From an uncultured delta proteobacterium (GTDB lineage: Bacteria > Myxococcota_A > Polyangia > Fen-1088), in contig CAWCMR010000022.1 of NCBI GenBank assembly GCA_963796685.1, forward strand, positions 64,001-128,000: a stretch of DNA of 64,000 bases, in the 5' to 3' direction. How positions within the stretch are numbered: position 1 is the first letter of the stretch; the number at the start of each line of letters is the position of its first letter. Of this stretch, positions 31,524-63,911 are shown piece by piece. Position numbers and translations under genes: made by a program. The notes below the pieces were generated by a model. It worked only from the letters and a program-made list of their open reading frames with translations, did no database searches and was not told the DNA's origin.

Positions 31524-31525
31524 CC

Positions 31526-41003: not shown

Positions 41004-41118
41004 TGCAGCATTCGGGCCACGCCCCCACCTCCGTGACTTCAACCCCTTACGCGCGCGACGGCCGCGAAAGCACGAGTCATTTCCATCAGAATGATGGGAC
41101 GACTCATTCAATTCGACG
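41004..41118 (-). promoter_or_regulatory. Sigma54 promoter P1 with IHF-like box and enhancer pair
   Basis: TGGCCCGAATGCTGCA (41019-41004); TTCAACCCCTTA 41038; CCATCAGAATGATG 41083; CATTCAATTCGACG 41105. Confidence 0.8.
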
Positions 41119-41129
41119 GGCAGGGTGCG

Positions 41130-41922
41130 CTAGGCGAACGACGCGACCAAGACACGCGGTCCAGGCGACACGATAGCGGAGCTCTCGGAGACCACGGGAA
41201 GTGTGTCAGGCTTTGGCATGGGTTCACCGAGGTCGACGAGTAGGATCTCGGATTCGTCGCAGGCGGTCAGCGAGACCGCGCGTTCGGCCGTGACGCCAAC
41301 ACCATCGCCCGCGGTCAGAACGATGTCACCCAGGGTGATCTCGCCCTTTACGACGTGCAGCCAGGCGCTGCGCCCCTGGGAGAAGCTCGCGGACCACGTG
41401 TTGCCCGGGGTCGAGCAGGGCCGAGTAGACAAGGGCGTCCTGGTGAATGCGCAGCGACCCTCTGCGAGCGTCGGGCGAGGCAATGGCGCACAATCCGCCG
41501 CGACGCTGGGCGGTGGTGAAACGCCTTTGCTCACAGCCGGGCTCGAGGCCGATTGCGGACGGGCGCAACCAGATCTGGAAAAAGTGCGCCCAGTCGGACC
41601 GCGATGCATTGGTCTGGCTGTGGCGAAGGCGCTGGCCGGCGGTCACGCGCTGGAACTCGCCGGTTTGCAAGATGCCCGAGCCGCCGAGCGAGTTCTCGTA
41701 GGCGAGCGCGCCCTCGCGAACGTAGGTCAAGATCTCGATGTCTTGACCCAAGGTGCGAGGAACGCCGGCGCCTGGTGCGAGGCGCGACTCTTTGAGGATC
41801 TCGATGTTCCCCAAGCCATCGACGAGTCTATCCGCTGGATCCTTCGGGTCGAAGGTGAGCCAGGTTTCGAGCTTCCGGCTCTTGTCGTGGTGTCGTTCCG
41901 CGGCCCTGCGAAGGGTGATCAT
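41130..41922 (-). CDS. Pirin family protein with apparent +1 frameshift near 41380
   Basis: MITLRRAAERHH, EILTYVREGALAYENSLG, FFQIWL; the C-terminus GRSAWLHVVKGEITL..GDGVG..EILLVDL is in another frame. Confidence 0.85.
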
Positions 41923-41931
41923 CGCTCCGCC

Positions 41932-43575
<1,644 letters not shown>

Positions 43576-43905: not shown

Positions 43906-44020
43906 AGCAGCTTTCGTGCCATGTGCGAAAAGCGCATGGGTTCGCCGTCCTTGAGTACGAGCGGCTCTCGCGCATGACTTTTCTCCATCAGGATGAAGTA
44001 CCTCTTCATTCAATCCGAAG
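43906..44020 (-). promoter_or_regulatory. Sigma54 promoter P2 (groESL) with enhancer pair
   Basis: TGGCACGAAAGCTGCT (43921-43906); CCATCAGGATGAAG 43985; CATTCAATCCGAAG 44007. Confidence 0.82.
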
Positions 44021-44071
44021 CAGGGCGAGCGGTGCTCCCCACATCTACCCACCCTGGACGTGTGTCGGATT

Positions 44072-44087
44072 TGGCGTATTCGTTGCA
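44072..44087 (+). promoter_or_regulatory. Divergent sigma54 promoter for the Omp85 gene
   Basis: TGGCGTATTCGTTGCA, GG-N10-GC. Confidence 0.65.
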
Positions 44088-45515: not shown

Positions 45516-45779
45516 TCAAGTTGATACTGTATCGGTCGCCTCCGTCCCGCGCGAATCGGGGCTCTTGCCATTGCGGTGCAACTTCGCGCGCAGATCGTGG
45601 CGGAGCTCGCTTCCGACTTTTGGCGCCAAAAGCAACGCTACGCCGGCACCGACCAGCAGCCCGATGCCGAAGGTGCCGAGCGTCCCGAGCAACTGATTGG
45701 TAAAGGACCGCTTGGTCTCGAGGCCAAGAATGCCGAGATAGTCGTCTTTGTCCATGTTCCTGATGTCCTGCAATTTCAT
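45516..45779 (-). CDS. YtxH domain protein
   Basis: FGIGLLVGAGVALLLAPKVGSELRHDL. Confidence 0.85.
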   Translation of the reverse strand: MKLQDIRNMDKDDYLGILGLETKRSFTNQLLGTLGTFGIGLLVGAGVALLLAPKVGSELRHDLRAKLHRNGKSPDSRGTEATDTVST

Positions 45780-45979
45780 TGGTCATTCTCCTGGTTGGGT
45801 TTCGACTTCGATCCGGTGAGAGTTTGCGCTATCTCTCTTTGAAAGGTTGGCAGCGCCGCCATCAGGCCAATGCGCAACCCGGTCCCTAGAATCTTCCCCG
45901 CGAGCCGGGTGAAAAGCCCGCCGCCCAGGACGAAGCTATCCATGCGTTGTCTCCTTGTGGTCAGGGTCCTCGTGCTCAT
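45776..45979 (-). CDS. Small hypothetical membrane-associated protein
   Basis: ATGA overlaps on both sides; FVLGGGLFTRLAGKIL. Confidence 0.65.
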   Translation of the reverse strand: MSTRTLTTRRQRMDSFVLGGGLFTRLAGKILGTGLRIGLMAALPTFQREIAQTLTGSKSKPNQENDQ

Positions 45980-46185
45980 CGTTGCCCAAGAAAGAGGCCG
46001 AGGCCAAAGGCAAGGGCGACCGCCATGCCAGGCTTGCGGCGCACCCACCGTCGCCAGTCCAGGCTGCGCGTCACCTCGGCCTCCAACGCGCCCATCGAAA
46101 CGACAAACTGCTCGCGCGAATGCTCGAGTTGCATGCTTGCGTGCGCGAGCGCGGAATCCGCTTCCGTCGCGGTGCTAATGGACAC
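45976..46185 (-). CDS. Small tail-anchored protein (DUF3618/ElaB-like)
   Basis: LEHSREQF..LDWRRWVRRKPGMAVALAFGLGLFLG. Confidence 0.7.
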   Translation of the reverse strand: MSISTATEADSALAHASMQLEHSREQFVVSMGALEAEVTRSLDWRRWVRRKPGMAVALAFGLGLFLGQR

Positions 46186-46600
46186 GGGAGTTTCCCGGAG
46201 ACGACGCGACGTCGGGAGCAGTCGCTTTGTCCAGTGCTGCCAGGCTGCTGCTCATGGCGGCGGCGGAGCTGTCCATGAGGCGCCCACCGCGCGAACGGAG
46301 TGGCGAGAAGAGGAGGCCCACGCCGGCACCGGCGATGTGGACGAGCCCGATGACCACGAGAGGAAGACCGACTGCGGGGTGGCCGCCGAGCAGGACCGCC
46401 AACCCGGCCATTGCCAATCCATATCCAAGAGCAACCAGTGTGGCCAGCACCGCGATAAGGCTGGCACGTCGACCCATCCCGTGCATTTCCGCTTTGAGCT
46501 CGAGCTGGGCGACCTTCACGTGTTGCCCGAGTAGGTGGCCAAATCCCAGCACTGCCTCCTTGGCCAGCACCGACACGCCTGGGTTTGACGTCGTCTTCAT
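46175..46600 (-). CDS. Phage-holin-family (holin-X/YqjE-like) membrane protein
   Basis: LLGQHVKVAQLELKAE followed by two TM helices; ATGA overlap. Confidence 0.75.
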   Translation of the reverse strand: MKTTSNPGVSVLAKEAVLGFGHLLGQHVKVAQLELKAEMHGMGRRASLIAVLATLVALGYGLAMAGLAVLLGGHPAVGLPLVVIGLVHIAGAGVGLLFSPLRSRGGRLMDSSAAAMSSSLAALDKATAPDVASSPGNSRVH

Positions 46601-47799
46601 GTGCGGGTGACTCCTGGCGAGCTCGACGCCTCCGAGGCGTGCTTTTGGCCGTGCAACACGGCATCGATAGCGACCTCGCTGCCGGTTTCGGCCGCCTTGG
46701 CCAACGCCTTGTGGTCCGTGAGCACGCGGTCTGACAGATATCCCCGCAGCCAGTGGCGCTCGACGATGGGGTAGGCGGCCACCAGGGGCAGCACCAAGAC
46801 GGCCCCGATGATTCCTTGCAACCGCCCCCCGACGAGTAGGGCAAGAAGTACCGACAGGCTGGAGATCTTGAGCTTGTTGCCATAGATGCGCGGTAACAGA
46901 AAGTAGGTCTCGAAGAGGTGATAGGCCACGTATGCGGCCAGCACTGCCACCGCGGCACCCGGCGACACCGCGAGCGCCAATAGAATGGCTGGAACCGTGG
47001 CCAGCAGAATGCCCAACACCGGGATGATGTCGCAGAATCCGGCAACCACGGCCAAGGGTGCAGCGGCCGGGACCCGCAGAATGGTCAAGAGAACGGCGGT
47101 AAAAATCGCAAAGAGCAGCGCGGCGAGAAGCTGGCCGCTGACATAGGCGTGCACCACGTCGGATACCTCGTGCATGGTGGTGGCCAACCTTTCGCGATAG
47201 GTGCGCGGTATGAAGGCCAGTATCCAAGCGTAAAGACTTTTGCCGTGGAGCAACAGATAGAGGGTGAGAACGAGAATGACTACGGTCACTACGACACCTG
47301 AGGCGGCGCTCTGGCCCCAGGCAAACCATCGACTGAAGGCACCCGCTGCCATGGAGGAGGATGCTGATTCGAAAAGCTCTCGAATAATCTTGTGGATCCC
47401 CGGATAGCGCAACGGGATTCTGCTCAGGACGCGTGCGCGGAATTCAGGAAGATTTTCCAGTAGATGGGTCAGCTGTCCGGTAAGCGGCGGCATGACGAAC
47501 ATGACGAAGACCGCCAAAAGTACAATGGCAAGGGCCGCAATAATAGCGACGCTCAATGCTCGACGGAGCCGCCTTTGCTCCATCCACCGGACGGCCGGAG
47601 ACAGCGTGACTGCAAACAGAACCGAGATGAGGAACAACAAGAACTCGGGCCACAAGAGGTAGGTCGCCCACAGGCCAAGGCCGCTTCCGATGAGCTTGAA
47701 GACCGTGGCCATCGGGATGCGAAGGTCTCGCGTGCGTCGGGTCTGAGGCGCCTTGATCTCGGTCGTGGTGTTCCATTCACCTTGCACGGGGACCCCCAT
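46597..47799 (-). CDS. AI-2E family transporter
   Basis: LSPAVRWMEQ, AYVSGQL, DIIPVLG, ETYFLLPRIYG, GGRLQGIIGAVLVLP; start uncertain. Confidence 0.9.
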   Translation of the reverse strand: MGVPVQGEWNTTTEIKAPQTRRTRDLRIPMATVFKLIGSGLGLWATYLLWPEFLLFLISVLFAVTLSPAVRWMEQRRLRRALSVAIIAALAIVLLAVFVMFVMPPLTGQLTHLLENLPEFRARVLSRIPLRYPGIHKIIRELFESASSSMAAGAFSRWFAWGQSAASGVVVTVVILVLTLYLLLHGKSLYAWILAFIPRTYRERLATTMHEVSDVVHAYVSGQLLAALLFAIFTAVLLTILRVPAAAPLAVVAGFCDIIPVLGILLATVPAILLALAVSPGAAVAVLAAYVAYHLFETYFLLPRIYGNKLKISSLSVLLALLVGGRLQGIIGAVLVLPLVAAYPIVERHWLRGYLSDRVLTDHKALAKAAETGSEVAIDAVLHGQKHASEASSSPGVTRT

Positions 47800-47918
47800 C
47801 TTTTGCCGCGAATGCCAATGGTCCAACTCTTGTCCAAAGCGACTGGGAGGTCAGGTGTGAGGGAGCACCCCCGACCTCCACGAGTCCTAGGCTAGATAGT
47901 TTAGGCAAACCAAGCTCC

Positions 47919-48836
47919 TCAGCGCACGCTGAGATGCGAAGGCTGAATGATGATCTCGACACGGCGGTTGTTGGCGCGGTTCTCGGCGTTGCTATTGTCG
48001 ACGAGTGGATGGCTCGAGCCCATTCCGACAGCGCTAATCTTGGCGCTGTCCACGCCACGCGATACCAGGTAGTTGCGCACGGCGTCTGCCCGGTTCAGCG
48101 AGAGCGGTTGATTGATCCTGTCCGAACCCTGGCTGTCGGTGTAGCCCTCGACGATCATCCGCTTGTCGGAATTCTGTGCCTTGAGTGCCTCGGCCACTTG
48201 ATCGAGCTTGGTCATCGCAGTGTCGAGCAGAGCATACTTGTTCGAAGCGAAGAGAATGCTGCCGGAAAGGGTGATGACCAGCCCTCGGGAGTCTTCTTTG
48301 ATCGCGGCAATGGCGGCCAGATCCTTCATCGCACCAGCCAGCTTGCTTTCGGCCGCCACACGCGCTTGCGTCTCGGCTGCCAATTGGTCGGTGGTCTTTT
48401 CAATCTCCGCCGTCTTCGCGTTGCTGTCCCGCTGCTCTTCTTTGAGCTGCTCGCGCGTCGACGAGAGCGCCGCTCGGGTACTCTTCACCTGGTTGTCACG
48501 AGCCGTCACGCCGGCCTTCACCGCTTCGGCGATCTTCTGGCGGTCGAGCTCCGTGCGAGCCTTCGCGTCTGCCAGTTCTACCTTGTTCTGCGCGATGTAC
48601 GCGTAATCACGGCACATAACAGTGTCGCCGTGCTCGTCGAACTCCTTGTTCGCCTTGGCCAGGACTATCCAAGCATCGTGCAACTCGGTGGGGGTCAGCT
48701 TCGCCGCCAACCCGGTGTTCGCCGCCGTAAACGAAGTGCGCGCCTGAACCAATTCGGGGGGCGCAGTGGTGGCACATCCGCTAATCAATCCTGCGAGTGC
48801 GATGCTCGCCAACAAATTGGTCTTTGTGATCTTCAT
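47919..48836 (-). CDS. OmpA family lipoprotein with DUF4398-like N-terminus and coiled coil
   Basis: Lipobox ISGC; RGLVITLSGSILF, VEGYTDSQGS, RADAVRNYL, RANNRRVEII. Confidence 0.9.
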   Translation of the reverse strand: MKITKTNLLASIALAGLISGCATTAPPELVQARTSFTAANTGLAAKLTPTELHDAWIVLAKANKEFDEHGDTVMCRDYAYIAQNKVELADAKARTELDRQKIAEAVKAGVTARDNQVKSTRAALSSTREQLKEEQRDSNAKTAEIEKTTDQLAAETQARVAAESKLAGAMKDLAAIAAIKEDSRGLVITLSGSILFASNKYALLDTAMTKLDQVAEALKAQNSDKRMIVEGYTDSQGSDRINQPLSLNRADAVRNYLVSRGVDSAKISAVGMGSSHPLVDNSNAENRANNRRVEIIIQPSHLSVR

Positions 48837-48870
48837 GGTGAAATCCTTTGTAAGAGTGGTGGATGGAAAA

Positions 48871-49221
48871 CTAGTTGGTTCCGCGTGAGCGAACGGCCTT
48901 CAGATCTTCGGTCGCCCTGAGGGCGTCCTGGTGTACCGAGACTTCGCGGGCAAGCCCGATGGCCAGCTCGGCATCCGAATCGGCACGAGCAAGCACCAGT
49001 ACAGCCCGCGTTTCTCCGGCAGCGGCCATCTTCTTGGCCGTGTCGGTCTGGTCTTTGGCCAGTTGCAGATGCAGTTTGGCGGCGGGCACGCCGCTCGCAC
49101 CCACTTCTTCGGCGCCGCGGATGCTCGCCTCCGAATTTGCGAGTTGATCGGGAGAAAGCTGCACCGTGGCGCAACCTGCCAGGCCTAGAACGGCTAGCAA
49201 CATCATCAATCTTTTCATCAT
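48871..49221 (-). CDS. DUF4398 lipoprotein
   Basis: LAGC; ASIRGAEEVGA..PAAKLHLQLAKDQ..RADSDAELA. Confidence 0.85.
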   Translation of the reverse strand: MMKRLMMLLAVLGLAGCATVQLSPDQLANSEASIRGAEEVGASGVPAAKLHLQLAKDQTDTAKKMAAAGETRAVLVLARADSDAELAIGLAREVSVHQDALRATEDLKAVRSRGTN

Positions 49222-49273
49222 GGACAGTTCCTTTGCGTAGAGGTTGTTGGGTTACAAGAGACTTTGGATTCGG

Positions 49274-50572
49274 CTACAACGGACACCCACTGCCCGGCAC
49301 GGAAACCACGTTCGAGTCGAATACGAAGGCCCCGGCACCCCCTACCCACGCCCCTGCCATCGAGCGGCCGCACGCCGTAGACCCGGTCTTCATCGTGATA
49401 TCGAAGCCCGCCAGCACGTTGCCTTGGAACTCGGTGTACGAGCCAAGTGTTGCCGAGCTCGCCACTTGCCACCAGACATTGGACGCCTTGGTCCCGTTGG
49501 TCAGCAAAATGCGAGCATGGGCTCCTGGGCTGGGGGCGCCGTCGGCCGTCGTAAGGGAGCTGGCCGATTGGAAGACGAAGACGGCGTTTGCGTCGCCTTG
49601 GCCGTCGAGCGTGACATCTCCGGCGAGCAAGAGTGACGTGGTCGAGGTGTAGACGCCAGGCGTGAACCAGTTGTCACCGAGCACGAGGGGACTTCCAGCC
49701 ACGTTCCCCAAGGTCGTGGGCGCTGCGATGGGCGTACCCCCACCCAAGGAACCAACTGCCGGTGGTCCGGCCAAGGGTGTGATGGCGAGAAACGCCGCGT
49801 TCAAGTCGGCCTTGATGGCGCTTGCCGTGGTCGTGTCCGGATACGTGTTGGTAATGACCGTTCCGCTGATCGTCGGAGGCATGCCACCGCAAAGGCCGAA
49901 GCCGCCGGCGTTGTCGACCGTCACGGCGTTGCACGTTCGATCCGGCGTGAGCACCACGTCACCATTGATGTGGGTGATCGGCGACGTGATGGTGTTGGTA
50001 ATACCCGCCGTGGCCGCAATCGCAAACGGCTCGGCCTTTCCAAGGTTTACGACGATGGCAGGCCCTGACGCGGAGCCATCGATGTTCTCGAAATCCGTGG
50101 TCTCCGCGTCGATGAGGGCCGCGTCGAGCTTTTCGGTGTCGATGCCGGGCACGTCGGCGGCATGAGCGTCCAGGATTGGAACATTGCTCTCGGGAACGTC
50201 GAGGACCGAAACGTCGGGGACAAGGACATCGCCGATAGGCGCGTCGGAGACAGCGACGTCGAAACTGCCGGTGTCGGGAGTGCCGGCTTCTGCGATGGGT
50301 GTATCGGCAGTGCCGCTGTCGACCTTCGCCGCGTCGGCGACGTCCGTCTTGAGCTCCACGGTGTCGGCATTTGCGCCATCCGCGTTTGCGCTGTCGGGGT
50401 TCGCCAGGTCGAGATTTCCGGCGTCGGGGATCGCCCTATCGCCGCTGACGGCATCGGCCTTTCCGGCGTCTGGCTGGGCTGCATCGGTGGGAGGAAACTC
50501 GACGAGCTGTCCTCCGCAGGCGGGCAAAAGGATCAAGGACAAAAACAGCGCGTGGTGTTGGAGGGTCTTCAT
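49274..50572 (-). CDS. Ice-binding family (DUF3494) lipoprotein with Asp-rich spacer
   Basis: LPAC lipobox; VNLGKAEPFAI, TPGVY, VTLDGQGDANAVFVFQ, ASNVWWQVASSATLG..FQGNVLA..ITMKTG. Confidence 0.88.
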   Translation of the reverse strand: MKTLQHHALFLSLILLPACGGQLVEFPPTDAAQPDAGKADAVSGDRAIPDAGNLDLANPDSANADGANADTVELKTDVADAAKVDSGTADTPIAEAGTPDTGSFDVAVSDAPIGDVLVPDVSVLDVPESNVPILDAHAADVPGIDTEKLDAALIDAETTDFENIDGSASGPAIVVNLGKAEPFAIAATAGITNTITSPITHINGDVVLTPDRTCNAVTVDNAGGFGLCGGMPPTISGTVITNTYPDTTTASAIKADLNAAFLAITPLAGPPAVGSLGGGTPIAAPTTLGNVAGSPLVLGDNWFTPGVYTSTTSLLLAGDVTLDGQGDANAVFVFQSASSLTTADGAPSPGAHARILLTNGTKASNVWWQVASSATLGSYTEFQGNVLAGFDITMKTGSTACGRSMAGAWVGGAGAFVFDSNVVSVPGSGCPL

Positions 50573-50573
50573 A

Positions 50574-51746
50574 TTACTTGCTCCCGTCATTGAGGATCGT
50601 GAAGTAGACGACGAACTCGACACGGCGGTTGTTTTCACGGCCGGCGATGGTTTCGTTGGTATCGATCGGAACGGATGAGCCGAAGCCTTTCGAGGCCAGG
50701 CGTTCCTTGTCGATACCGTGCGATACCAGATAGTTCAGCACCGCCTCGGCCCGCTGCTCGGAAAGGGTCTGATTACGCTCGTCCCCACCTTCCGACGAGG
50801 AATGCCCCTCGACCTGAACGCGAAAACCCTTGTTGTCATTCAAAGCCTGCACGACTTCATCCAGAACCGGGAACGAGACTTCCTGAAGAACGGCCTGGTT
50901 CCAGGCGAAGTAGAGCTTCTCGTTCAGCTCGAGCTTGTCCTTCTTGATGACGAGCTTCTTGTACGTGGGGCAGCCCCAGTTGTCCATCGGCCCGACCACG
51001 TCGGGGCAGTGGTCTACATTATCGGGGATGCCATCGTGGTCCCGGTCCGGGCAAACGAAAAGCTTCTTCTCGACGCTTCGAGCTTCGGGAGGGGCGGCAA
51101 TGGGGGCTCGACGTTCCGAGCCCATGGCAACCTCGAGGCTTACGCCCAGGCTCAAGAGCTTGGCGTCGTTGTTGTCGTACCCGCGACGCTCTTGCTGCAT
51201 GATTTGAAAGTAGCGCGCGAACGGACCGACCCAGAAGAGACGCGACCTGCCGATCGGCACCGATAAACCGACAGCTGCCGCGAAACCTGGCCGGTTGAGG
51301 TGTCCGGTGCGAACGTAGAGAAGGTCCGCGTCCGCCCAGGGCAAGACCCCGAGAAATAGATCGCTCGCGGTTCGCGGGGGGCGGACACGTAGGCTTCCGC
51401 CGAAGGTCCATGCCGTTCCACCTTCTGCACCGGCTGTTTCGTTGGGCAGCGCCAGAAAGGTTGCGCTGGGCCCGATGTCCACGAGCTGGTTGACGACCCA
51501 CAGCGCCTTGATGGTTTCACCGCCGCCGGTCTTGAAAATGCGAGACTGCGGGTTCGTGAGCGGCAAAGCAACACCAGGCTCGAGCTTCAAGGCAAAGTCC
51601 CCGACCTGGGCCGGCACGGGGGCCTCGTCGGAGGTATCGCCTTCGTCCGCCTGTGCCAAGTGGTCGAATAGCAGCAGGACAGCAGCAGTCAGGGCTATCG
51701 TCGTCGAGTACGCGTATCGGACTCTCGTGTGCATTGGTGTCTCCAT
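50574..51746 (-). CDS. OmpA family outer membrane protein with thrombospondin type 3 repeat
   Basis: Signal peptide, barrel-like N-terminus, DRDHDGIPDNVDHCP, VEGH, RAEAVLNYL, ENNRRVEF. Confidence 0.9.
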   Translation of the reverse strand: METPMHTRVRYAYSTTIALTAAVLLLFDHLAQADEGDTSDEAPVPAQVGDFALKLEPGVALPLTNPQSRIFKTGGGETIKALWVVNQLVDIGPSATFLALPNETAGAEGGTAWTFGGSLRVRPPRTASDLFLGVLPWADADLLYVRTGHLNRPGFAAAVGLSVPIGRSRLFWVGPFARYFQIMQQERRGYDNNDAKLLSLGVSLEVAMGSERRAPIAAPPEARSVEKKLFVCPDRDHDGIPDNVDHCPDVVGPMDNWGCPTYKKLVIKKDKLELNEKLYFAWNQAVLQEVSFPVLDEVVQALNDNKGFRVQVEGHSSSEGGDERNQTLSEQRAEAVLNYLVSHGIDKERLASKGFGSSVPIDTNETIAGRENNRRVEFVVYFTILNDGSK

Positions 51747-51884: not shown

Positions 51885-51950
51885 CGGTCGAGGGATTGTG
51901 GCCAGCAGAGTGGCCTTGGCGTCAAACATCTCCCGAGCCGGACATACGGG

Positions 51951-53491: not shown

Positions 53492-53514
53492 GAGCTGTCC
53501 TGGCTGCGATGGCG

Positions 53515-54111: not shown

Positions 54112-54146
54112 GCGGGTAGCCTCATGCTGCTTGCCAATGCCGGAAG

Positions 54147-54461
54147 CTAGCGCACGAGCAGGATGACTACCACCACCAGCAACGTCACGACAAGTGCGCC
54201 GGTACCGATGTAGATTCCGCCGCCACCGCCCGCAAAGCCGGCGAGCTGGGGAGCCGCCCTCTCCCGCGCGGCGTAGTCCGATGTGCTGCCTGGGTAGTCC
54301 GGTGTGCTGCCCTGAGAGACATCAAGCTGCGCCGGCTTGGCAAGCTCATTGCCAGGGACATTGTTTATCGCGACCTGGGGCGCTCCCATGGGTTCAGCAT
54401 GAGCGAAGGCCGGAACGCAAGATAGCGCCACGAGCAACGCGCCTATGATGAGCCTCTTCAT
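54147..54461 (-). CDS. Small secreted protein with Gly-Gly motif and C-terminal hydrophobic helix
   Basis: MKRLIIGALLVALSCVPAFAHA signal; YAARERAAPQLAGFAGG-GGGIYIGTGALVVTLLVVVVILLVR. Confidence 0.8.
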   Translation of the reverse strand: MKRLIIGALLVALSCVPAFAHAEPMGAPQVAINNVPGNELAKPAQLDVSQGSTPDYPGSTSDYAARERAAPQLAGFAGGGGGIYIGTGALVVTLLVVVVILLVR

Positions 54462-54525
54462 GGAATGTCCCTCCGACACTGGACCAGGCGACTCGACAAA
54501 ACTACTGGCATCGTCCAAAGCATGT

Positions 54526-54852
54526 TCATGCCTCTTTCGTCTGACGTTTGGCGCGTTCGACCTTGGGATCGGTAGAATGCGATTTTGCTGTGTGAAGGGC
54601 TGCCAACTGGCCTTGGATCTTCGTCCAGGTGTCTTTGTGAACCGCTCTTCTGAGTAGCACGCGCCCCATGGGTGGGGTCGTCGCGAGCGCACTCCGGACG
54701 CCTTGTTCGAGATCCTCCAAGTCGATATACTCCTCACCCTCGAGCGGACGAACCGCTGTTTCGGCAGTGCTTACGGAAGCGACTTCGCCGTCGGACAGCA
54801 GCATCAAGATACTCTCGCGGGTTACGTGCTCTGCTCTTGCATCGGTGTTCAT
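54526..54852 (-). CDS. Conserved hypothetical protein
   Basis: GGAG RBS; TRESILMLLSDGEVASVSTAE..GEEYIDLEDLEQGV..TWTKI. Confidence 0.75.
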   Translation of the reverse strand: MNTDARAEHVTRESILMLLSDGEVASVSTAETAVRPLEGEEYIDLEDLEQGVRSALATTPPMGRVLLRRAVHKDTWTKIQGQLAALHTAKSHSTDPKVERAKRQTKEA

Positions 54853-54918
54853 GGCATTCTCCAATCAAGGAAATCAATCATGGGTTCAGGTAGATCTTCA
54901 TCTGCGACGGCTCTCCGT

Positions 54919-55443
54919 TCACGGGGCATGTGTCGCCAGCAAGGAAGCGCCGGTCGTCCCGAGAACGACGTGTGCGTGCTCGATCATCTCGGCGCTGCCG
55001 CGCGCGAGCACGAGGAATTTCCCGGCCTTGACGTCGAGCTCATACTTCACGATGCTGTCTTTGGGGATCCCGATGCTTGTCAGCGCCGCAGCGAAGACAC
55101 CTGCCGCGCCACCGATGGCGGCACCCTCCAGTGCACCGACAATCCATCCCACCAGCGGGCCCATCACAACCAGCGGGCCGAGGACGGGAATGAAGAAGAA
55201 GGCGCCACCGAACAGGAGTCCCCAGAGGCTTCCCCAAAACGCCCCACGGACGCCCCAAAACTTCATGCGGTCGCCCGAGGTGTAGAAACCGAGGGCATGT
55301 TCCTCTGTGTGATAGTCCTGGCCGATGATCGACAGTCGCTTCATGTCGAGCCCCGCTTTCTGAAGATCCCTCAAGGCGGCTTCAGCGCCGGTATGCGAGT
55401 CATAGATAGCGACGATTGAGTGTTCCTGTGTGCTTGGAGTCAT
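54919..55443 (-). CDS. General stress membrane protein (YflT/DUF1269-like)
   Basis: VAIYDSHTGAEAAL..LSIIGQD..GAFWGSLWGLLFG..LTSIGIP..YELDVKAGKFLV. Confidence 0.85.
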   Translation of the reverse strand: MTPSTQEHSIVAIYDSHTGAEAALRDLQKAGLDMKRLSIIGQDYHTEEHALGFYTSGDRMKFWGVRGAFWGSLWGLLFGGAFFFIPVLGPLVVMGPLVGWIVGALEGAAIGGAAGVFAAALTSIGIPKDSIVKYELDVKAGKFLVLARGSAEMIEHAHVVLGTTGASLLATHAP

Positions 55444-55470
55444 GGTGTTTGTTTTCCTCCTTCGAATGAC

Positions 55471-57981
55471 CTACCTCTGCCAAAGCATCCATCCCGCCCC
55501 CGGATCTTGTGCGAGGGAGTCGTGCTTCGCCATGATGCGCGCCGTATAGTCCGCTGCCGGACGTGCGGAAGAGACTGTGGCACGGTAGTCGTACGCGTCC
55601 GAAGCGTTCCCTTCTCGCCGTGTGCCTGTCATTGCTTGTTTCACGGCGCCGCCGGCCTGGTCGCCGTCGGCATAGAGCTCGACGCAAACCGAGTCCGGAC
55701 TGACATCGTTCAGGAACACCTCGACCGCGATGTGGTGCTCCCCCCCTTGGGTCAGGACAGTGACGGCACCAAAACGGATGGCGGCCAGTTTCTGCGCCAG
55801 CGTGTTTTGGCCGTCGAGGAGCTTCCGAGTGGCGGCACCTTTGTCCGCCACCTGGCTGCGATAGGCGGTTGCTGCAGGAAGATAGTGTTGCTCTGTGTAT
55901 TCGCGCACCGCGCGGCTGGCGGAAAACCTGGGCGTCAGGCGCGCCATGCTTTCCCGCATGCGTGCGATCCACGCCGTGGGAATTCCTTTGTCGGTGCGTG
56001 CGAAGAATTCCGGAATCACCTCCTGTTCGAGCATCTCGTAAAGCGCCTCGGCCTCGGATGCGTCCCAGGCCGGATTGTCGCCATGCTCGTTGCCGTCTCC
56101 CAAAGCCCAGCCGAGCACCGGCTTATAGGCCTCGGCCCACCAGCCGTCGAGCTCGGAGATGTTGACACCGCCATTGACCAACACCTTCATACCGCTCGTG
56201 CCGCTGGCTTCCCACGGTCGCCGAGGTGTGTTGATCCACACGTCGACCCCTTGCGCCATGCGTTCGGCCAATAACATGTCGTAGTCGGCCAAGAAGAACA
56301 CCGGCACGCTTCCATCGCCACGACCGATGAATTGCGTCCATTCCTGAATCAGGGCCTGGCCGGCTTGGTCAGCCGGATGTGCCTTGCCCGCGAGAATGAG
56401 CTGGATGGGACGTTCCGGGTGATTGAGGATGCCGAGCAGGCGGTTGATGTCGTGGAGAAGAAGATTGGGCCTCTTGTAGGTCGCGAATCGTCGCGCAAAA
56501 CCCAGGGTCATGACCTCGGGATCCAGCCGCGCTTGGCTTCGGGCGATGGCCGCGGGCAGGGCTCCGACGGCGGCCATCTGGCGACCGATGCCTTCGCGGG
56601 CATATTCCACGAGCAGCCTGCGACTCGTGTTGCGCATGGCCCACAACTTCTCGTCCGAAACCAGGCGGAGATCTGCCTCGAGGGTAGTCGACGTACCCAT
56701 CCAGCGACTCTTGCCACAGGCGTCGGTCCAAACTTCGTCGGCCGCCGCCGAATCCCATGTCGGCATGTGCACGCCGTTGGTTACGTGACCGACCGGAACC
56801 TCGCTCTCCGGCCAGCGAGGGAAGAGCGGCGCGAAGATATGCCGGCTCACCTGACCGTGCAACCGGCTGACGGCATTGACGCCCCCACATCCACGCATCG
56901 CAAGGTAGGCCATGTTGAAGGGCTCGCGCGCGTCCGATGGGTCCTTGCGCCCCAAGGCCAAGAGCTCGTGCAGGGAAAGACCCAATTCCTGCAGTGCATA
57001 CTGTCCGAGGTACTGCTCGATCAAGGCCGGAGGGAAGAGGTCGAAGCCCGCACTCACTGCGGTGTGCGTGGTGAAGAGATTTCCGGCCCGCGTAGCCGCC
57101 AGCGCCACCGCGAACGGATTCCCATTCTCCTGCATGAAAGCGCGGGCACGTTCCAGCAAGGCGAAGGCCGCATGCCCTTCATTGAGATGGCAGACCTCCG
57201 GCTTGATCCCGAGCGCATCGAGCAAACGCCAGCCGCCAAGCCCGAGCACGATCTCCTGCTTCAAGCGCAACTCCGCGCCGCCACCGTAGAGCTCGCCGGT
57301 GATTCCACGGTGAATAGGAGCATTGGCCGCATCATTCGAGTCGAGCAGGTACAGTTTTCGCCGACCCACCTGGACCTGCCAGGTGCGCAGCCAAACCGGA
57401 GAGCCGGGTAACTCGATCTTCAGGCGCAGCCGTTCGCCGTTCGGCTGATACACAGGGGTGATCGGGAGCTGTCCTGGATCATTGGACGGATACAGCGCTT
57501 GCTGAGCCCCGTTGCGATCGATAACCTGGCGGAAATAGCCGTGCTGGTAGAGCAAGCCGATGCCGACCACCGGAACACCGAGATCGCTGGCGGCCTTCAG
57601 TTGATCTCCCGCCACGTTACCAAGCCCGCCCGAATAGATCGGGAGCGCTTCGCTCAGCATGAATTCCATGCAGAAGTAGGCGACGCACGAAAGGGGTGTC
57701 TGGGGATATCTCTCTTGAAACCAGGCCGGCTCCGTCGACGACTGGCGTTTGGCCTGCACCAGGCGGTCCAGCGCTTGGCAGAAGTCGGGATCGGCAAGAG
57801 CGCTCGCGAGCTTGTCACGCGCGACGTTTTGAAGAACCGCGTTCGGGTGACGGGTCAGCGCCCATAGCTCGGGGTCAAGCCTTTGCCACAATTCATCCGA
57901 GCTGTGGTTCCACGACCAGCGTAGATCCATGGCCAGCTCGGTCAGAGCGTCCATGCCTTGTGGTAGGGGAGAAGCGGTCAA
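55471..57981 (-). CDS. glgP: Alpha-glucan phosphorylase (GT35)
   Basis: AYFCMEF, YSGGLGNVAGD, HLNEGH, FARRFATYKR, AGKAHPAD, EASGTSGMK, LDGWWAE. Confidence 0.95.
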   Translation of the reverse strand: MTASPLPQGMDALTELAMDLRWSWNHSSDELWQRLDPELWALTRHPNAVLQNVARDKLASALADPDFCQALDRLVQAKRQSSTEPAWFQERYPQTPLSCVAYFCMEFMLSEALPIYSGGLGNVAGDQLKAASDLGVPVVGIGLLYQHGYFRQVIDRNGAQQALYPSNDPGQLPITPVYQPNGERLRLKIELPGSPVWLRTWQVQVGRRKLYLLDSNDAANAPIHRGITGELYGGGAELRLKQEIVLGLGGWRLLDALGIKPEVCHLNEGHAAFALLERARAFMQENGNPFAVALAATRAGNLFTTHTAVSAGFDLFPPALIEQYLGQYALQELGLSLHELLALGRKDPSDAREPFNMAYLAMRGCGGVNAVSRLHGQVSRHIFAPLFPRWPESEVPVGHVTNGVHMPTWDSAAADEVWTDACGKSRWMGTSTTLEADLRLVSDEKLWAMRNTSRRLLVEYAREGIGRQMAAVGALPAAIARSQARLDPEVMTLGFARRFATYKRPNLLLHDINRLLGILNHPERPIQLILAGKAHPADQAGQALIQEWTQFIGRGDGSVPVFFLADYDMLLAERMAQGVDVWINTPRRPWEASGTSGMKVLVNGGVNISELDGWWAEAYKPVLGWALGDGNEHGDNPAWDASEAEALYEMLEQEVIPEFFARTDKGIPTAWIARMRESMARLTPRFSASRAVREYTEQHYLPAATAYRSQVADKGAATRKLLDGQNTLAQKLAAIRFGAVTVLTQGGEHHIAVEVFLNDVSPDSVCVELYADGDQAGGAVKQAMTGTRREGNASDAYDYRATVSSARPAADYTARIMAKHDSLAQDPGAGWMLWQR

Positions 57982-58745
57982 ACGTGCCCTCCTGCGCGCT
58001 CTTCCAGGGCCGGCTTGGCCAGCTCATGATCCGCAGTCTTCTCGATGTCCGCCTTGGAAAGCGTCACGTAGACTTTCGATTCCTTGTAGCTGATTCGCTT
58101 TACCTTGTCCGTCGGGATCCGGATCTCCTTGCCCGAATACCAGTGGCCCGCTTCGACGACCAGCTCGTGGATCGCCCAGCTTCGGTCGTCGACGAGGAAC
58201 CCGGTCACGTGGCCGATCTGTCCGTCAACCGTCTCCATGGCGTAGCCGGTTACTTCCCGAGCGCTGTGGAGATGCTTATCGCCTTTGTCGCGGTGTCTCT
58301 CGACGGCCTCCACCTCCTGTTTCGAATGCGGCAGGATCACCGGGTATCCGCCCAGTCCCCATATCGCCCCGCCATCCCAGTAAGCTGGCCAGCCGTAGTA
58401 GCTGTAATAGTCGGCCTCGTACTGTCGCGAAACCGGCTTGTGGGACTCGATCGAGGGACTATCCTGGATCTGCATTTTACGCAGATTGATGTGCATTGTC
58501 TTTTCCCCCTGGTCTAGCTTGCCAAAAGCATGAGGAGAGAGCAGGACCAGTCGACCGGTCAGCCAGGATCCCGTGTCCGCAACCGCATAGCGGATCACCC
58601 AGTGCTTGTCCTCGAAGTAGAAGTCCCTGATCTGGCCAATGTCACCATCCAGGGCCACGAGCTTGTCACCGTAAAGCTCGGTGGTGTTTTCGAGATGCGA
58701 GTCAGAAAATGCAACGGTGGGGTACTTTTCCGTGGTCCGAGTCAT
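57978..58745 (-). CDS. Tandem PRC-barrel domain protein
   Basis: DGDIGQIRDFYFEDKHWVIRY..DTGSWL; second DGQIGHVTGFLVDDRSWAI. Confidence 0.88.
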   Translation of the reverse strand: MTRTTEKYPTVAFSDSHLENTTELYGDKLVALDGDIGQIRDFYFEDKHWVIRYAVADTGSWLTGRLVLLSPHAFGKLDQGEKTMHINLRKMQIQDSPSIESHKPVSRQYEADYYSYYGWPAYWDGGAIWGLGGYPVILPHSKQEVEAVERHRDKGDKHLHSAREVTGYAMETVDGQIGHVTGFLVDDRSWAIHELVVEAGHWYSGKEIRIPTDKVKRISYKESKVYVTLSKADIEKTADHELAKPALEERAGGHV

Positions 58746-58780: not shown

Positions 58781-58893
58781 AGCAGGTTTCGGGCCATCAT
58801 CGGTCGGCAATGAATTCAGGAGCTTGCACGGAGGATGTCTCTTTTCGCCGGCCTGTTCCATCAACGTGACGTACCTCTTCCATCAAATCGAAG
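58781..58893 (-). promoter_or_regulatory. Sigma54 promoter P5 with IHF-like box and enhancer pair
   Basis: TGGCCCGAAACCTGCT (58796-58781); TTCAGGAGCTTG 58815; CCATCAACGTGACG 58858; CCATCAAATCGAAG 58880. Confidence 0.82.
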
Positions 58894-58966
58894 GACCGTC
58901 GGCACGTCGCGCCGGTCCCCGACATCCTAGAGAGCGACCAGCAAGGGTGCGCAGGTCGCGTTGCAT

Positions 58967-58982
58967 GGGCACAATTGATGCA
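58967..58982 (+). promoter_or_regulatory. Possible divergent sigma54 promoter
   Basis: GGGCACAATTGATGCA, GG-N10-GC. Confidence 0.45.
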
Positions 58983-59217: not shown

Positions 59218-61776
59218 CCTGCGCCCGTAAGGAATGGGAATCGCGGCACCTCGCGCGCGGCCCAGGACATGCATCGGCCGATTGCTCGTCATTTTCAGCA
59301 CCTGGCGACATCCAAATCAACTCTCCCAATCCCTTCCATGACAAGCGAGACCTCAGCCCTTTCGATGTCAGAGCATTCCCCTCTTGGCGCGTCTAGACGT
59401 TGGGATTCACCCCTTGGAACTTACGCTTTGATTGAAAGTTGGTAGAACCATGATCGACAGACCAGCAGACAGCGCTCGACCCTTGGTGCCCGCGAGCGAG
59501 AAGAACGGAGTTGCCGGAGTCTCTGGAATACTCAGGCGATGGCATCCGCTAAGGCCGCTCATCATCGCAGCGGTCGTACTCATCGCTCTTTTGACGACAA
59601 CCCTCGGCTATATTCAGAACGGCCTATGGATGCAGCAACTCGGCTACACTGGCATATTCTGGAAGCTTCTCTTCTTGCGCTGGGGGTTGTCCTCCGCAGC
59701 CTTTGTCGTCGTCTTTCTATATCTATGGATCAATGTTCGTCTCGCGGCCCAAAACAGCGGGATATACCGTGTGGGTCTGTCAAACGACTCCACCGCCCTC
59801 GCGAAGCTCGACATCAAGATCTCTGCCACGGCCTTCAGGGTTGCGACCTACGTGATCGCCGCCGCCGCCGCGCTGGTCTTCGCCCATATCTTCTACGGGC
59901 AATGGGATACGTACCTTCGACTTCGCTACGGGGGGGCGTTCGGGCTATCCGACCCGCTCTTCGGGGTCGAGCTTGGATACTATATCTTCCGCCTTCCCCT
60001 CTATGAGCTACTGCAGGGAAGTCTCTCCGTATTGGCGTTGATCACGGTCCTGCTTGTCGCCTTACTCTACGGATATTCCGGGTCGCTGCGCGCCGGTCAA
60101 GCCGGACAAATGGCGAGTAGTCGTACCAAGGCCGTTTCACACCTGTCCCTGCTGTCGTTCGTGCTGGTTGCCGCCTGGGGCTGGGGTTTCTACTTGGACC
60201 ACTATGAGCTTCTCTACTCCAGCCTGGGAGTCGTCTACGGGGCCGGCTATACGGCCGACCGAGTGACCAGGCTCGCTTACTGGATCATGACCGGCGCCGC
60301 CGCCGCGCTCTGTGCGCTGCTGGTGCTCACGGTCTTTCGACCCCGATTCAAAGTGATGGCCATTGGCGCTGCTGTCTACGTAGGCTTGTACTGCGTCGCA
60401 GTGTGGATCATGCCGATGCTTTTCCAGAGATTCAAGGTGCAACCCAACGAGCTGGCTCTCGAAACTCCATATCTCAAGAACAACATAGATTTCACGCGTA
60501 AGGCGTTCGGTCTGGACGCGATTCAGGAAACAGCCTACCCGGCCTTGGCCGACCTGACACCAGAGGTGATCGCGAGAAATCAAGATACGATCCAAAACAT
60601 TCGGCTGTGGGACTACCGGCCCTTGCTTCAAATGTACCAACAGGCACAAGAGATACGGCTCTACTATCAGTTTTACGAGGTCGATGTGGACCGCTACCAT
60701 CTACAAGACGGTTATCATCAAGTGATGTTGTCCTCGCGCGAGCTCTCTCCCGAGCTTCCCGCGGAGGCCCAAACCTGGGTCAATAAGAAGTTGCAGTTCA
60801 CCCACGGTTACGGTTTGGCGATGAGCTTCGTATCGCAGACGACCGGAGGCGGTTTTCCACGGTACGTCATGGAGAACATACCACCCGAGTCTTCCTTCGG
60901 CCTGAACGCCAAGCAGCCATCGATTTACTACGGCGAGTCGATGCCGGGATATCGGATCGTCGCGACAAGCGTGAAAGAATTCGACTATCCCCAAGGGAAT
61001 AAGAATGTCTACACAAGCTATGACGGAAAGGGGGGCATTCGCCTAGACAGTTTGTGGAAGCGACTTCTATTCGCGTGGACCCAGTCGGACGTCAATATCC
61101 TGTTTACATCCTACCTCAAACCCGAGAGCAAGATTCAGATCTGGAGGCGTGTTCAGGAGCGAGTGCAGCAGATCGCGCCATTCTTGCGCCTCGACCGGGA
61201 TCCCTATGCCGTCGTGAGCGACGGGAAACAGTATTGGATACAGGACGCCTACACCGTCTCGGACCACTTCCCCTACTCGACGCCTCACGGATCGGCGTTC
61301 GAGGAAGTGATCAACTACATTCGAAACTCCGTCAAGGTGGTGGTGGACATGTACGACGGAACGGTCGCGTTCTACGTCATGGACCCCAAAGACCCCGTTC
61401 TAGGGGCCTATCGGCGTGCGTTTCCGGGCGTCTTCAAAGACCTGAATCAGCTTTCGGCAGATCTGAGGACACACTTGCGGTACGCGGAGGGTCTCTTCTC
61501 GATCCAGGCCGACCAGTACCGCACATTCCACATGACGGTTCCGCAGGTCTATTACAACCGCGAGGACCTCTGGGTGTTTCCCAACGAGGCATATGCGGGT
61601 GTGGTCGCGCCCATGCATCCCTACTACATTCTCATGAAGCTCCCGGGAAGTGACCGGCTCGAGTACCTTCTGATGACTCCGTTTACGCCTCAAAAGAGAA
61701 ACAACATGGTGTCCTGGCTGGCTGCCAGGTGCGATTTCCCCGAATACGGAAAGATGCTTTTCTACGAGCTTCCTAA

Positions 61777-63240
61777 CACTACTGATTGAAACACGAGATT
61801 CTCCGTCGGTGTTCAGTGGCATGTGCACCAGACGGTGTGGTCCATCGTCTTCGGTGACAAAGGGGACAGCGGGGCAACCACCTGGTCAGGACACGCGCGA
61901 CGGCCAAGCGCACGGTGATGAAGGAATCCGGGAAGTGCCGCTCCGGGCGAGTTGACGTTCGCACCGTCGTGACGATGCGGCGCTCTCCGCGTGGCGGCTT
62001 TTCCGGTCGAGGGGGGAAAAGCCCTGGAGCGCTCGGCAACGATAAACGCGAAGCAAACCAGCACGATGGAGACATGGTGGTTCCAGCCACGGAAGGAGCG
62101 CCCCTCGTAGTGGTCGAGTCCCAGCTCTCCCTTGGCGTCCTCATACACGCGCTCGGTGCGCCACCGCTGCTTGATCCGCCGGACGAGCTGCCGTCGGGTC
62201 ATGGTCGCCGGCAACGTGGCCGCGGTGAAGTCGGTCGGCCCCTCTTCACCGTCGGGCCATTCCATGACCAGCCAGACCGCCTCGCGCTTTGACGGGTCGA
62301 CCAAGTCGTCCTGTGCGAGCACGACACGCTCGACGGCGAAGCGCGACGACATCTTGCCCTTGGTTCCCTCCCGCCAGGTCACCCGCCGGAAGCCTTGCCG
62401 CCCGATGGCGATGGCGAGGTCGCCGACCGCCACGGGGCTACCGATACGCCGCCCGCGCGAGTCCAGGCGCCACACCGTCGTCGTACAGTGCAGGCCCACG
62501 GCGTAGTCCAGGCCCTCGCAACGCACGCGACGACGAAACTCGGCGTTGTCCCCATACGCGCTGTCGGCCAGCACCAGCCCCGTCGGTAACCCGTCCGCGA
62601 CCGCACGGTCAATCATTTCCACTCCCAGCTCGGGCTTGGTCTTGAACGTCACCTCGTCGGGGATGTGGGCCTCGGCCCGCCGCGAGGGATTCTCGGTCCA
62701 GCTCTCGGGCAGGTATAGCGCGAAGTCCACCGGCAGGTGCTCCGTTCGCGTGGCGATGGTCAAGCTGGCTGCCACCTGGCAATTCGCAATCTTGCCGAGG
62801 GTGCCGGAGTACTGTCGCTGCACGCCTACCGAGTGCGTGCCCTGCTTGGGGAAGCCGGTGTCGTCGATGATCCAGTCCGTGACCGGCCCCCGGGCCGTCA
62901 TCGCCGCCAGCGCGTAGCGCGCGGCCTCCCGGCGTACATCACGGTCGGACCACTCCGCGTCTCGGGTGAAGTAGGTCAGCCGCTGGTGTGCGGCATCCAC
63001 CAGCTCCGGGTCCGGGCAAGCCCGCGCCGCCATCGGTTCCGCACTCTTCCGCTCTCCGTCGCCCATCAAGCCCAAGGCATAGGTGGCAAACGACGCCCGC
63101 GACGGCGCCGTCCGCAAAACACCGCCGATTCGGTCGAAATAGGCGGCCAACCGACGCTCTCCCTTGCGATCAAGCTGGTATTCCATCCCCGATCTTTCGT
63201 CGATTTCTCGACGGACTGGCAAATTTCTCAATCAGTAGTG
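61777..63240 (-). mobile_element. IS701-family insertion sequence, 1464 bp
   Basis: 13-bp perfect terminal IRs CACTACTGATTGA (61777-61789; 63228-63240); CTAA target duplication at 61773-61776 and 63241-63244. Confidence 0.95.
61813..63186 (-). CDS. IS701 family DDE transposase
   Basis: ERKSAEPMA, IIDDTGFPKQGTHSVGVQRQYSGTLGKIANCQ, LYLPESW, ADSAYG, RWRTE..KGELGLDHYEGRSFRGWNHH. Confidence 0.95.
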   Translation of the reverse strand: MEYQLDRKGERRLAAYFDRIGGVLRTAPSRASFATYALGLMGDGERKSAEPMAARACPDPELVDAAHQRLTYFTRDAEWSDRDVRREAARYALAAMTARGPVTDWIIDDTGFPKQGTHSVGVQRQYSGTLGKIANCQVAASLTIATRTEHLPVDFALYLPESWTENPSRRAEAHIPDEVTFKTKPELGVEMIDRAVADGLPTGLVLADSAYGDNAEFRRRVRCEGLDYAVGLHCTTTVWRLDSRGRRIGSPVAVGDLAIAIGRQGFRRVTWREGTKGKMSSRFAVERVVLAQDDLVDPSKREAVWLVMEWPDGEEGPTDFTAATLPATMTRRQLVRRIKQRWRTERVYEDAKGELGLDHYEGRSFRGWNHHVSIVLVCFAFIVAERSRAFPPSTGKAATRRAPHRHDGANVNSPGAALPGFLHHRALGRRACPDQVVAPLSPLSPKTMDHTVWCTCH

Positions 63241-63798
63241 CTAAGGACAAGCTGGTCTACGGCCCGATGCAAATCGAGGCAATGATCGACCAGAACACGA
63301 CGATCGCGCAACAATTGACCTTGTGGGACCAGAAGGGGTCGAGAGTGATTCGAGGGAATCTCATCGCGGTGCCGATTGAGAACTCCTTTCTGTATGTGGT
63401 ACCAGTCTACCTTACGGCGGAGGGTACCGATTTCCCTCAGCTCAAACGGGTCATCGTGATTTCCGGCAACAAGGTGGCGATGGAGCCGACGCTTGATGAG
63501 GCAATTCAAGCCGTCTTCGGGACCGGGCAACCTCCACGGACCGGGCAGTTGCCGCAAGAACATCCGGAATTGGCTCAGGCGAGAACGCAATTCGAAGAAG
63601 CACAAAGATCGATGAAACAGGGAGACTGGCGAGATTTCGGCAAGGCGATGGATGCGCTGAAGAGCATGTTTGCCGTGTCTGCGAAATCGGCAGTCCACAA
63701 TTGAGTCTGGTGGACCGACGCATCGACGCCCCTTGAGAAGGCCGGGGCGTGACAGCAGACGACGACGCCTTGTGCGGTCGAAAGATCCGACCACTTCC

Positions 63799-63911
63799 TT
63801 TCAAATTGATGGCTTGAGTGCTCCATTTTGATTGGTTCGACCACATGTCTGGATATGTGCGGGTGCAAGTATTTGAACTTACAGCACCTCGCGCGCGGCC
63901 CAGGTTCTGCA
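63799..63911 (+). promoter_or_regulatory. Sigma54 promoter P6 with IHF-like box and enhancer pair, for a gene starting at or past the window edge
   Basis: TTTCAAATTGATGG 63799; CTCCATTTTGATTG 63821; CAAGTATTTGAA 63866; CGGCCCAGGTTCTGCA 63896-63911. Confidence 0.75.

Follow-up and report, generated by a model that had tools for sequence, protein, structure and literature searches.

Six promoters of one architecture

The stretch of DNA analysed here (the window; 64,000 nucleotides, C22:64001-128000) belongs to the genome of an uncultured member of the Polyangia, hereafter the source genome (7.3 Mb, 88.6% complete), of which C9, C13, C25 and C8 are other contigs. It carries a gene island in which six sigma54 promoters, P1 to P6, precede the genes listed in Table 1. 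We consider it quite probable that these promoters form one sigma54 regulon with a stress-survival output, under a one-component activator with XylR_N and V4R domains that the genome carries in two copies.

An initial annotation of the window had described the promoters as -24/-12 boxes, each preceded by two 14-bp enhancer sites. The six boxes were found to read as quoted, and the 22-bp spacing within each pair and the distances of 64, 64, 65, 64, 62 and 62 bp from proximal site to box hold. Paired sites are present at all six promoters, but the site proved to be a 17-bp palindrome instead of a 14-bp element, and the pattern first given for it, CNWTCA-N3-YGANN, is exact at 11 of the 12 sites, with one mismatch at 63834 (CAATCAAAATGGAG). 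In a matrix built on 122 sites from relatives the consensus is TCCWTCR-N3-YGAWGGA, in pairs 21-22 bp apart. The word TTCAR-N4-TTR, resembling a site for integration host factor (IHF), was recovered at five promoters at offsets of 19-20 and is missing at P2 (43921). It holds a fixed position in those five of the six, with about 19 bp between its end and the -24 element downstream, and its sequence departs from the Escherichia coli IHF consensus. Seven matches to the IHF/HU family were found in the genome by a search that does not separate IHF from HU.

The CTGC at -12 reads as described in all six boxes; as a mark of the regulon it did not stand, since it is a habit of the lineage. It was noted in 12 of the 15 regulon promoters of the source genome, the variable base in 88 promoters of relatives is C in 39, G in 18, T in 16 and A in 15, and TTGC occurs in none of six other TGGCACR-type boxes of the source genome. 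A second rpoN with CTGC specificity was ruled out, as one rpoN copy was found and CTGC is not specific.

Written as a loose pattern, the whole arrangement was counted six times in the window; 150 fourth-order Markov resamples gave 0.053 on average and never more than 1, and the remainder of the genome gave 0.044 per 64 kb. This comparison is partly circular because the pattern was written from the same six promoters, and the held-out tests therefore carry the weight. A spaced matrix built from the six found nine further promoters at 30.6 bits or more in the 7.3 Mb, the next match scoring 22.9; six lie at C22:152-165 kb and three at C9:24-30 kb. The regulon thus comprises at least 15 promoters in the source genome, plus likely divergent ones. 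A GG-N10-GC box stands upstream of a gene in 6/6 window promoters and 15/15 in the genome, of which one, facing the C22 activator copy described below, has lost its gene. The relatives' site matrix found 16 pairs above 20 bits at a gap of 22, all 16 with a sigma54 box, compared with 0-3 pairs at each of 12 other gaps, although the relatives' 122 sites were themselves found with a genome-trained matrix and so the relatives' matrix is not fully independent. The sixteenth pair (C25:1241272-1241294) lies outside both clusters and near transposase genes, with a sigma54 box 82 bp away and no called gene behind it. Resampling, the held-out scan and the relatives' matrix all reject a chance origin of the six promoters.

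The spacers of most promoters share 16-45% identity, and one group of four shares 44-79%; P5 shows a weak relation to the activator-proximal promoters (44-47% in spacers). As the spacers are mostly unrelated, the motifs appear to be kept by selection and not by recent copying, and recent duplication of one promoter was rejected for all but the related group of four. It was also observed that C9:17.7-30.6 kb and C22:152-159 kb share rearranged duplicated blocks of about 79-89% identity, containing the activator, a CheB/CheR fusion, a PAS protein and small genes. The first gene of one regulon promoter (C22:152564-152864; L002:5493-5864, minus strand) encodes a protein of 123 aa that has Cys motifs, resembles sigma70 region 4 at its C-terminus and may be a secondary regulator.

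Table 1. Promoter elements and genes of the six promoters, in window coordinates
Feature	Position	Strand	Details
P1 sigma54 -24/-12 box	41004-41019	-	read from sequence
P1 IHF-like box	41038-41049		8/8 positions
P1 enhancer pair	41082-41120		17-bp sites, centres 41090 and 41112
P1 first gene, sll1863-family stress response protein, 92 aa	40693-40971	-	NF052504, 75.8 bits vs cut-off 35
2904-aa GH94/glucoamylase-domain protein	31954-40668	-	
P2 sigma54 box	43906-43921	-	IHF-like box absent, 5/8 positions
P2 enhancer pair	43984-44022		centres 43992 and 44014
groES, groEL and pirin gene under P2	41326-43866	-	
Candidate divergent sigma54 box	44072-44087	+	58 bp from nearer site centre, about one helical turn closer
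Omp85-family gene after candidate box 44072	ends 45508		
P3 sigma54 box	51769-51784	-	
P3 IHF-like box	51804-51815		
P3 enhancer pair	51848-51886		centres 51856 and 51878
P3 gene string	45516-51734	-	co-oriented; OmpA-domain, ice-binding-like, small lipoprotein, DUF4398-OmpA, AI-2E transporter; also holin-like and small membrane proteins, YtxH-like protein
P4 sigma54 box	53377-53392	-	
P4 IHF-like box	53412-53423		
P4 enhancer pair	53455-53493		weakest of six; centres 53463 and 53485
WcaJ-type undecaprenyl-phosphate glucose phosphotransferase under P4	51951-53312	-	TIGR03023 above cut-off
P5 sigma54 box	58781-58796	-	
P5 IHF-like box	58815-58826		
P5 enhancer pair	58857-58895		centres 58865 and 58887
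P5 gene string	53515-58745	-	PRC-barrel, alpha-glucan phosphorylase, YflT-domain, small secreted protein, C39-like peptidase
Weaker candidate divergent sigma54 box	58967-58982	+	80 bp from nearer site centre
Short membrane-type open reading frame, then UPF0182 gene			after candidate box 58967
P6 enhancer pair	63797-63835		centres 63805 and 63827
P6 IHF-like box	63866-63877	+	
P6 sigma54 box	63896-63911	+	
P6 first gene	starts 63999, runs off window	+	heads long co-oriented carbon-metabolism/transport string

The GH94-domain gene, presumably for a cyclic beta-1,2-glucan synthase-like protein, is probably co-transcribed from P1 across a 24-bp gap, and the P3 and P5 strings would each form a single transcript. 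The YflT-domain protein under P5 scores below the Pfam cut-off as a stretch, and the groEL under P2 is one of three in the genome. The P2 enhancer pair is probably common to two divergent promoters; an arrangement in which one pair is seemingly shared by two divergent boxes, at distances one helical turn apart, was seen at loci L102 and L073 and at window 43984-44022. A near-copy of the P6 core, a CGGC...TGCA box with its upstream flank and no enhancer pair, lies before the UPF0182 gene (59247-59275, plus strand) and is possibly a decayed duplicate. The UPF0182 gene (59432-63704) is itself interrupted by a DDE_5 transposase gene (61813-63231), and its 3' end resumes past the element. At its left end the island carries a Phd/YefM antitoxin gene and a PIN-like gene (31284-31900, plus strand).

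A candidate activator and its sites

The initial annotation had placed the six promoters under one activator encoded outside the window, and the comparative evidence on paired sites, IHF-like box and stress-type genes supports this proposal. Among about 44 sigma54 activator domains in the genome, two lie inside the further promoter clusters, at C9:28.4-30.06 kb and, 29 kb past the window on the same contig, at C22:157.3-158.9 kb, each head-to-head with a regulon promoter; a co-conserved activator near the island was thereby found. The two are paralogues, about 85% alike over the sensor, with XylR_N, V4R, AAA+ (GAFTGA) and Fis-type helix-turn-helix domains. Of the solved structures, DmpR/CapR (6iy8) matches best from end to end, and the closest named relatives are Polyangia proteins. 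No conclusion rests on the structure prediction, which gave a mean pLDDT of 69.6 with much of the sensor domain below 50. A stand-alone XylR_N/V4R-like open reading frame (C25:221594-222118, plus strand; 240-codon frame, no AAA+ domain) was also noted, as was a phosphotransferase system (PTS) enzyme I-like gene directly behind the C9 activator (L005:6484-8271, minus strand), which reads in two frames and is absent there in a close relative, L046.

The family extends to 3079 proteins at E 1e-30 or better, not all of them orthologues, and the sensor was found in 44 of 400 other genomes of the phylum at E 1e-20 or better, about 32 of these at 55% identity or more. The 80 best orthologue loci from a species collection include, by record titles, Myxococcota, Acidobacteriota, Desulfobacterota and Gemmatimonadota. 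Full-length orthologues (n = 76) are 67-87% identical to the source-genome activator, and such identity across several phyla points to inter-phylum transfer. From this we infer that the activator-promoter unit may move between phyla and recruit nearby and distant genes. One peat-metagenome contig spans the activator start and the promoter (relatives' contigs; best holder share 0.21).

Three of the 80 loci were dropped for short flanks. With a matrix trained on the source genome only, a site pair of at least 20 bits was found within 300 bp upstream of 61 of the remaining 77 orthologues, whereas none preceded any of 5794 control genes or any of 26 further GAFTGA-type activators in the source genome. 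In 58 of the 61 the pair stops 43-57 bp short of the match start, which places it about 4-18 bp ahead of the start codon, and the outer arm of the distal site is GAAGGA on the activator strand, which may double as the activator's ribosome-binding site. Two further activators near the island, at C22:168 kb (PAS type) and C22:183 kb, were not singled out by this upstream-site test.

Full promoters numbered 76 in 49 of the 80 loci. Pair gaps of 22, 21 and 26 bp gave 69, 22 and 12 matches respectively, and each of the other 19 gaps gave at most 4. With a neutral sigma54 matrix, site-to-box distances formed two groups separated by one helical turn, 70 of 109 falling at 62-66 and 18 at 52-56. The IHF-like word occurs in 43 of the 70 promoters at 62-66, in 34 of these 43 at one of two positions, and in 6 of the 18 at 52-56; in most cases its start lies 30-31 bp upstream of the box. 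Apart from the activator, present in 76 of 80 loci, no gene family is shared by the loci as a whole, the next being pirin with 24. Taken together, these patterns give good probability to the assignment of the enhancer motif to the XylR_N/V4R activator of C22 and C9.

A strict form of the pattern was found in 18 of 401 genomes of the phylum, comprising the source genome, 9 of 44 with the sensor and 8 of 356 without an activator match (Fisher p 1.3e-5, overstated by kinship). As read from sequence, six of the eight sensor-less matches, and likewise two of the nine positives, resemble chance coding matches. Several strict matches lie on other contigs or far from the activator, eight occurring in genome G385, which suggests that the regulon also acts at a distance.

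A number of observations weigh against a single regulon under this activator. The other two sensor-less genomes, G217 (two promoters, 94% complete) and G302 (one, 90% complete), hold real-looking promoters, before DUF4398/OmpA-like and ice-binding genes, and no activator match. The strict pattern is missing from 35 of the 44 phylum genomes with a sensor match, and 16 of the 77 orthologues lack a strong pair. The upstream controls come from one genome while the orthologue loci differ in base composition, and kin are not independent. Although 30 of 50 activator-bearing genomes show the strict pattern, with 0 for the reversed control here and in the phylum scan, the 50 were picked from the 77 in favour of long flanks or a promoter match, and the activator-proximal promoter itself counts toward the 30. 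Among the first genes of relatives' promoters, 29 of 61 have no Pfam match, and non-stress targets recur, including kinases, PAS histidine kinases and CheB/CheR. Finally, both activator copies are frameshifted in the assembly, with one indel in the C9 copy and two in the C22 copy, so that the regulon could be silent in this strain.

Targets, sensor and alternative explanations

Targets elsewhere in the source genome include lmo0937-family, second sll1863-family, CBS-domain and Dps genes. The relatives' promoters (n = 104) comprised 32 without a called gene and 61 distinct first genes. Pfam matches were obtained for 32 of the 61: ice-binding (7), PAS kinases (3), and CsbD, YflT, superoxide dismutase (SOD), SPFH, DUF4398 and RelA/SpoT (2 each), the others including GroES, GroEL, Hsp20, pirin, flavodoxin, OmpA, DUF5670, a sigma factor and a Ser/Thr kinase. 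Several of the unmatched 29 resemble the sll1863 family by eye. In G385, promoters of this kind stand before two RelA/SpoT-domain genes and one for a sigma70 factor (L120:13816-14367, L122:13723-14823 and L120:7010-8233), a hint that the regulon may connect with alarmone signalling and feed a cascade. As to the island groESL, no match to a strict CIRCE pattern was found anywhere in the genome, a weak argument against CIRCE control. The label 'general stress' is a putative one, drawn from gene content only.

CsbD, YflT, YtxH, Dps, lmo0937-family and sll1863-family proteins, WrbA-like flavodoxin and SOD are typical general-stress genes, and these target families overlap with those of the RpoS, SigB and EcfG regulons. 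Each of the latter depends on an alternative factor of the sigma70 type that is under the control of anti-sigma factors or of proteolysis, whereas the system here is predicted to use sigma54 and a one-component ATPase activator in place of a dedicated sigma70-type factor. None of the models for RpoS, SigB/F/G or NepR reached its cut-off in the 88.6%-complete genome, in which other sigma70 paralogues are present. The role of EcfG in general stress is described in the accessible part of PMC6599016.

We compared the activator with the aromatic-responsive regulators XylR, DmpR, MopR and PoxR, with which it shares the plan XylR_N + V4R + AAA+ (GAFTGA) + helix-turn-helix. It is 35% identical to XylR and scores 350.6 against a cut-off of 999 with the NCBIfam MobR model NF041906. 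The Cys3-Glu zinc site of XylR/DmpR is shared, all four ligands being present in 77/77 orthologues. In DmpR, according to the part of PMC7264223 available, His100 and a strictly conserved Trp128 contact the phenol hydroxyl; His100 is kept in 46 of the 77 orthologues, whereas Trp128 is absent from all 77, the position, aligned next to a gap, being Leu in 66, Val in 5, Ile in 5 and Met in 1. Phe93 is replaced by Arg or Gln in 59 orthologues and Tyr155 by Leu in 74, and the sensor hairpin is about 5 residues shorter than in the XylR/DmpR group. The recognition helix, nearly invariant in the family, reads GSATLYRKL, compared with TRPAMAYRL in the XylR group. A quick tree of 119 sensor domains places the family within a clade of 40 rows (SH-aLRT 98), separate from the XylR clade (99); two basal rows of the 40 keep the Trp. 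As the zinc site is kept, the pocket changed and the clade separate, the activator appears to work like XylR/DmpR and to lie outside the aromatic-responsive group on the features tested. Given the remodelled pocket, a phenol is an improbable signal; our best guess, held with low confidence, is a small stress metabolite made by the cell itself.

The organization of the locus also recalls these systems. The activator gene is divergent from a target promoter, with sites near its own 5' region, as in XylR/DmpR; however, its targets are many dispersed stress-type genes and not one catabolic operon, and of the 61 first genes, the 32 that had a Pfam match included no aromatic catabolic gene. Inspected by eye, the XylR regions of pWW0 and of three proteobacterial relatives contain comparable CATCA/TGATG-like half-sites, in words taken to be the XylR sites, but with a spacer of 2 bp as against 3 bp here. 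The best matrix score in the xylR-xylS region was 5.7, compared with 7.6-23.6 for the training sites. For DmpR-Po and XylR-Pu/Ps, PMC13682980 and PMC3063778 describe the same layout, in which the regulator gene and its target promoter diverge and the promoter has an IHF site and two sites further upstream.

These sensor and target profiles bear on an alternative in which the same activator and sites respond to one chemical stress (membrane-active aromatics, solvents or organic acids), making this a solvent or envelope-damage tolerance regulon. The XylR_N/V4R sensor, with its invariant zinc ligands and frequent His100, and the many envelope proteins and chaperones among the targets would suit it. 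We nevertheless regard it as unlikely, given the loss of Trp128 and replacement of Phe93 and Tyr155, the presence of Dps, SOD, CsbD and glycogen phosphorylase among the targets, and the finding, from N-terminal sequence, of no efflux pump or aromatic catabolic family among the 45 commonest neighbour families.

The frameshifts raise the alternative that the regulon, though real in its ancestors, no longer works or is being lost in this strain, the island being acquired and the activator copies pseudogenes. Three indels in two copies compare with 1/16 other island loci and 1/18 loci elsewhere that read as broken, by a test that itself missed the C9 indel. In addition, no gene is left behind the promoter that faces the C22 copy, the transposase insertion splits the UPF0182 gene, and the regional G+C content is 0.60-0.62 compared with 0.64-0.65 for most contigs. 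In the close relative L046, an activator indel occurs at another place. However, all three indels lie in or beside GAGCTC-type words. Paralogue comparison placed 3 of 9 frameshifts in or beside such words against a background of 17%, 4 of the 9 being one repeated element, and one further case was read by eye. Frameshift sites linked to GAGCTC were noted at C9:28.4-30.1 kb, C22:157.3-158.9 kb, C25:352076, C13:431.6 kb, C13:6961 and C8:665077. This clustering suggests a methylated motif that trips the base caller, and base-calling error is a plausible origin of the activator indels. Moreover, the C9 copy keeps an open 537-codon frame from a TTG behind AAGGAG, and the 15 promoters are still close to consensus. 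Decay in this strain therefore seems improbable to us.

That the XylR-like gene is a passenger of the island while another activator, such as a two-component response regulator fed by the island's PAS kinases and CheB/CheR proteins, reads the sites would accommodate the promoters without an activator match in G217 and G302, the two further activators within 25 kb of the island among about 44, and the frameshifts in both candidate copies, but it is very unlikely given a pair fixed relative to the activator start codon in 58/77 orthologues across phyla and in 0/26 other activators, no other activator family recurring in the loci, and a recognition helix as invariant as one shared motif would require.

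Proposed mechanism and significance

The predicted regulation by the XylR_N/V4R activator can be set beside other sigma54 regulons. The initial annotation had held the enhancer to be unlike the described myxobacterial ones, and by eye it indeed differs from the three with which it was compared, those of NmpR, Nla28 and PexR. The accessible text of sources among PMC12316311, PMC11841059, PMC9765219, PMC12754779 and PMC8359166 gives the Myxococcus xanthus motifs as GCGCA-N5-TGCGC (NmpR), CT(C/G)CG(C/G)AG (Nla28) and CACCG-n6-CGGTG (PexR). So far as these texts go, the three are likewise multi-promoter sigma54 regulons with paired or tandem sites in the same phylum, whereas their sensors differ from XylR_N/V4R; OrpR has a PAS iron-sulfur sensor and not V4R. 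The Desulfovibrio vulgaris sigma54 regulome study (PMC4641369, available in part) follows the same comparative logic and lists DVU3305 under 'General stress response, transmembrane transport'; DVU3305 is a two-component response regulator of two local operons, whereas the activator here is one-component. Neither V4R nor XylR is mentioned in the text of that study, the motif logos in its figures and supplements aside. No description of this regulator or motif was found in the literature within reach, which excluded most subscription papers, figures and the Desulfovibrio supplements.

Three parts of the mechanism are read directly from the DNA, namely the fixed geometry, the activator synteny and the recurring gene content. 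By analogy with related activators, two activator dimers would bind the palindromes on one helical face, and the sensor domain would hold the ATPase off until a small signal arrives. IHF would then bend the spacer DNA so that the oligomer contacts sigma54-RNA polymerase, and the AAA+ oligomer would open the sigma54 complex. From the position of the sites, activator binding over its own 5' end may repress the activator gene and limit its level. Judging by gene content, the output would be a stress and stationary-phase survival programme of chaperones, envelope lipoproteins, glucan and glycogen metabolism, Dps and SOD. A broader proposal, which we offer tentatively, is that this is a fourth general-stress design in which sigma54 and one ligand-gated V4R activator replace RpoS, SigB or EcfG in Myxococcota, Acidobacteriota, Desulfobacterota and Gemmatimonadota. 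Activator and promoter would spread together as one portable unit, and the remodelled pocket would read a cellular stress signal.

The broad stress response of myxobacteria, acidobacteria and related soil phyla is poorly known, and this analysis supplies a named candidate regulator, a precise predicted binding site, a promoter grammar and a target list. The candidate is an uncharacterised relative of XylR and DmpR whose targets, in many bacteria of soils and sediments, appear to be chaperones, envelope proteins and other genes for protection against stress, and not enzymes of degradation. The motif allows stress genes without known function to be read from the genomes of uncultured bacteria. 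If the proposal is true, the XylR/DmpR sensor, familiar from pollutant sensing and biosensors, would extend to a large family with a different pocket and a different job.

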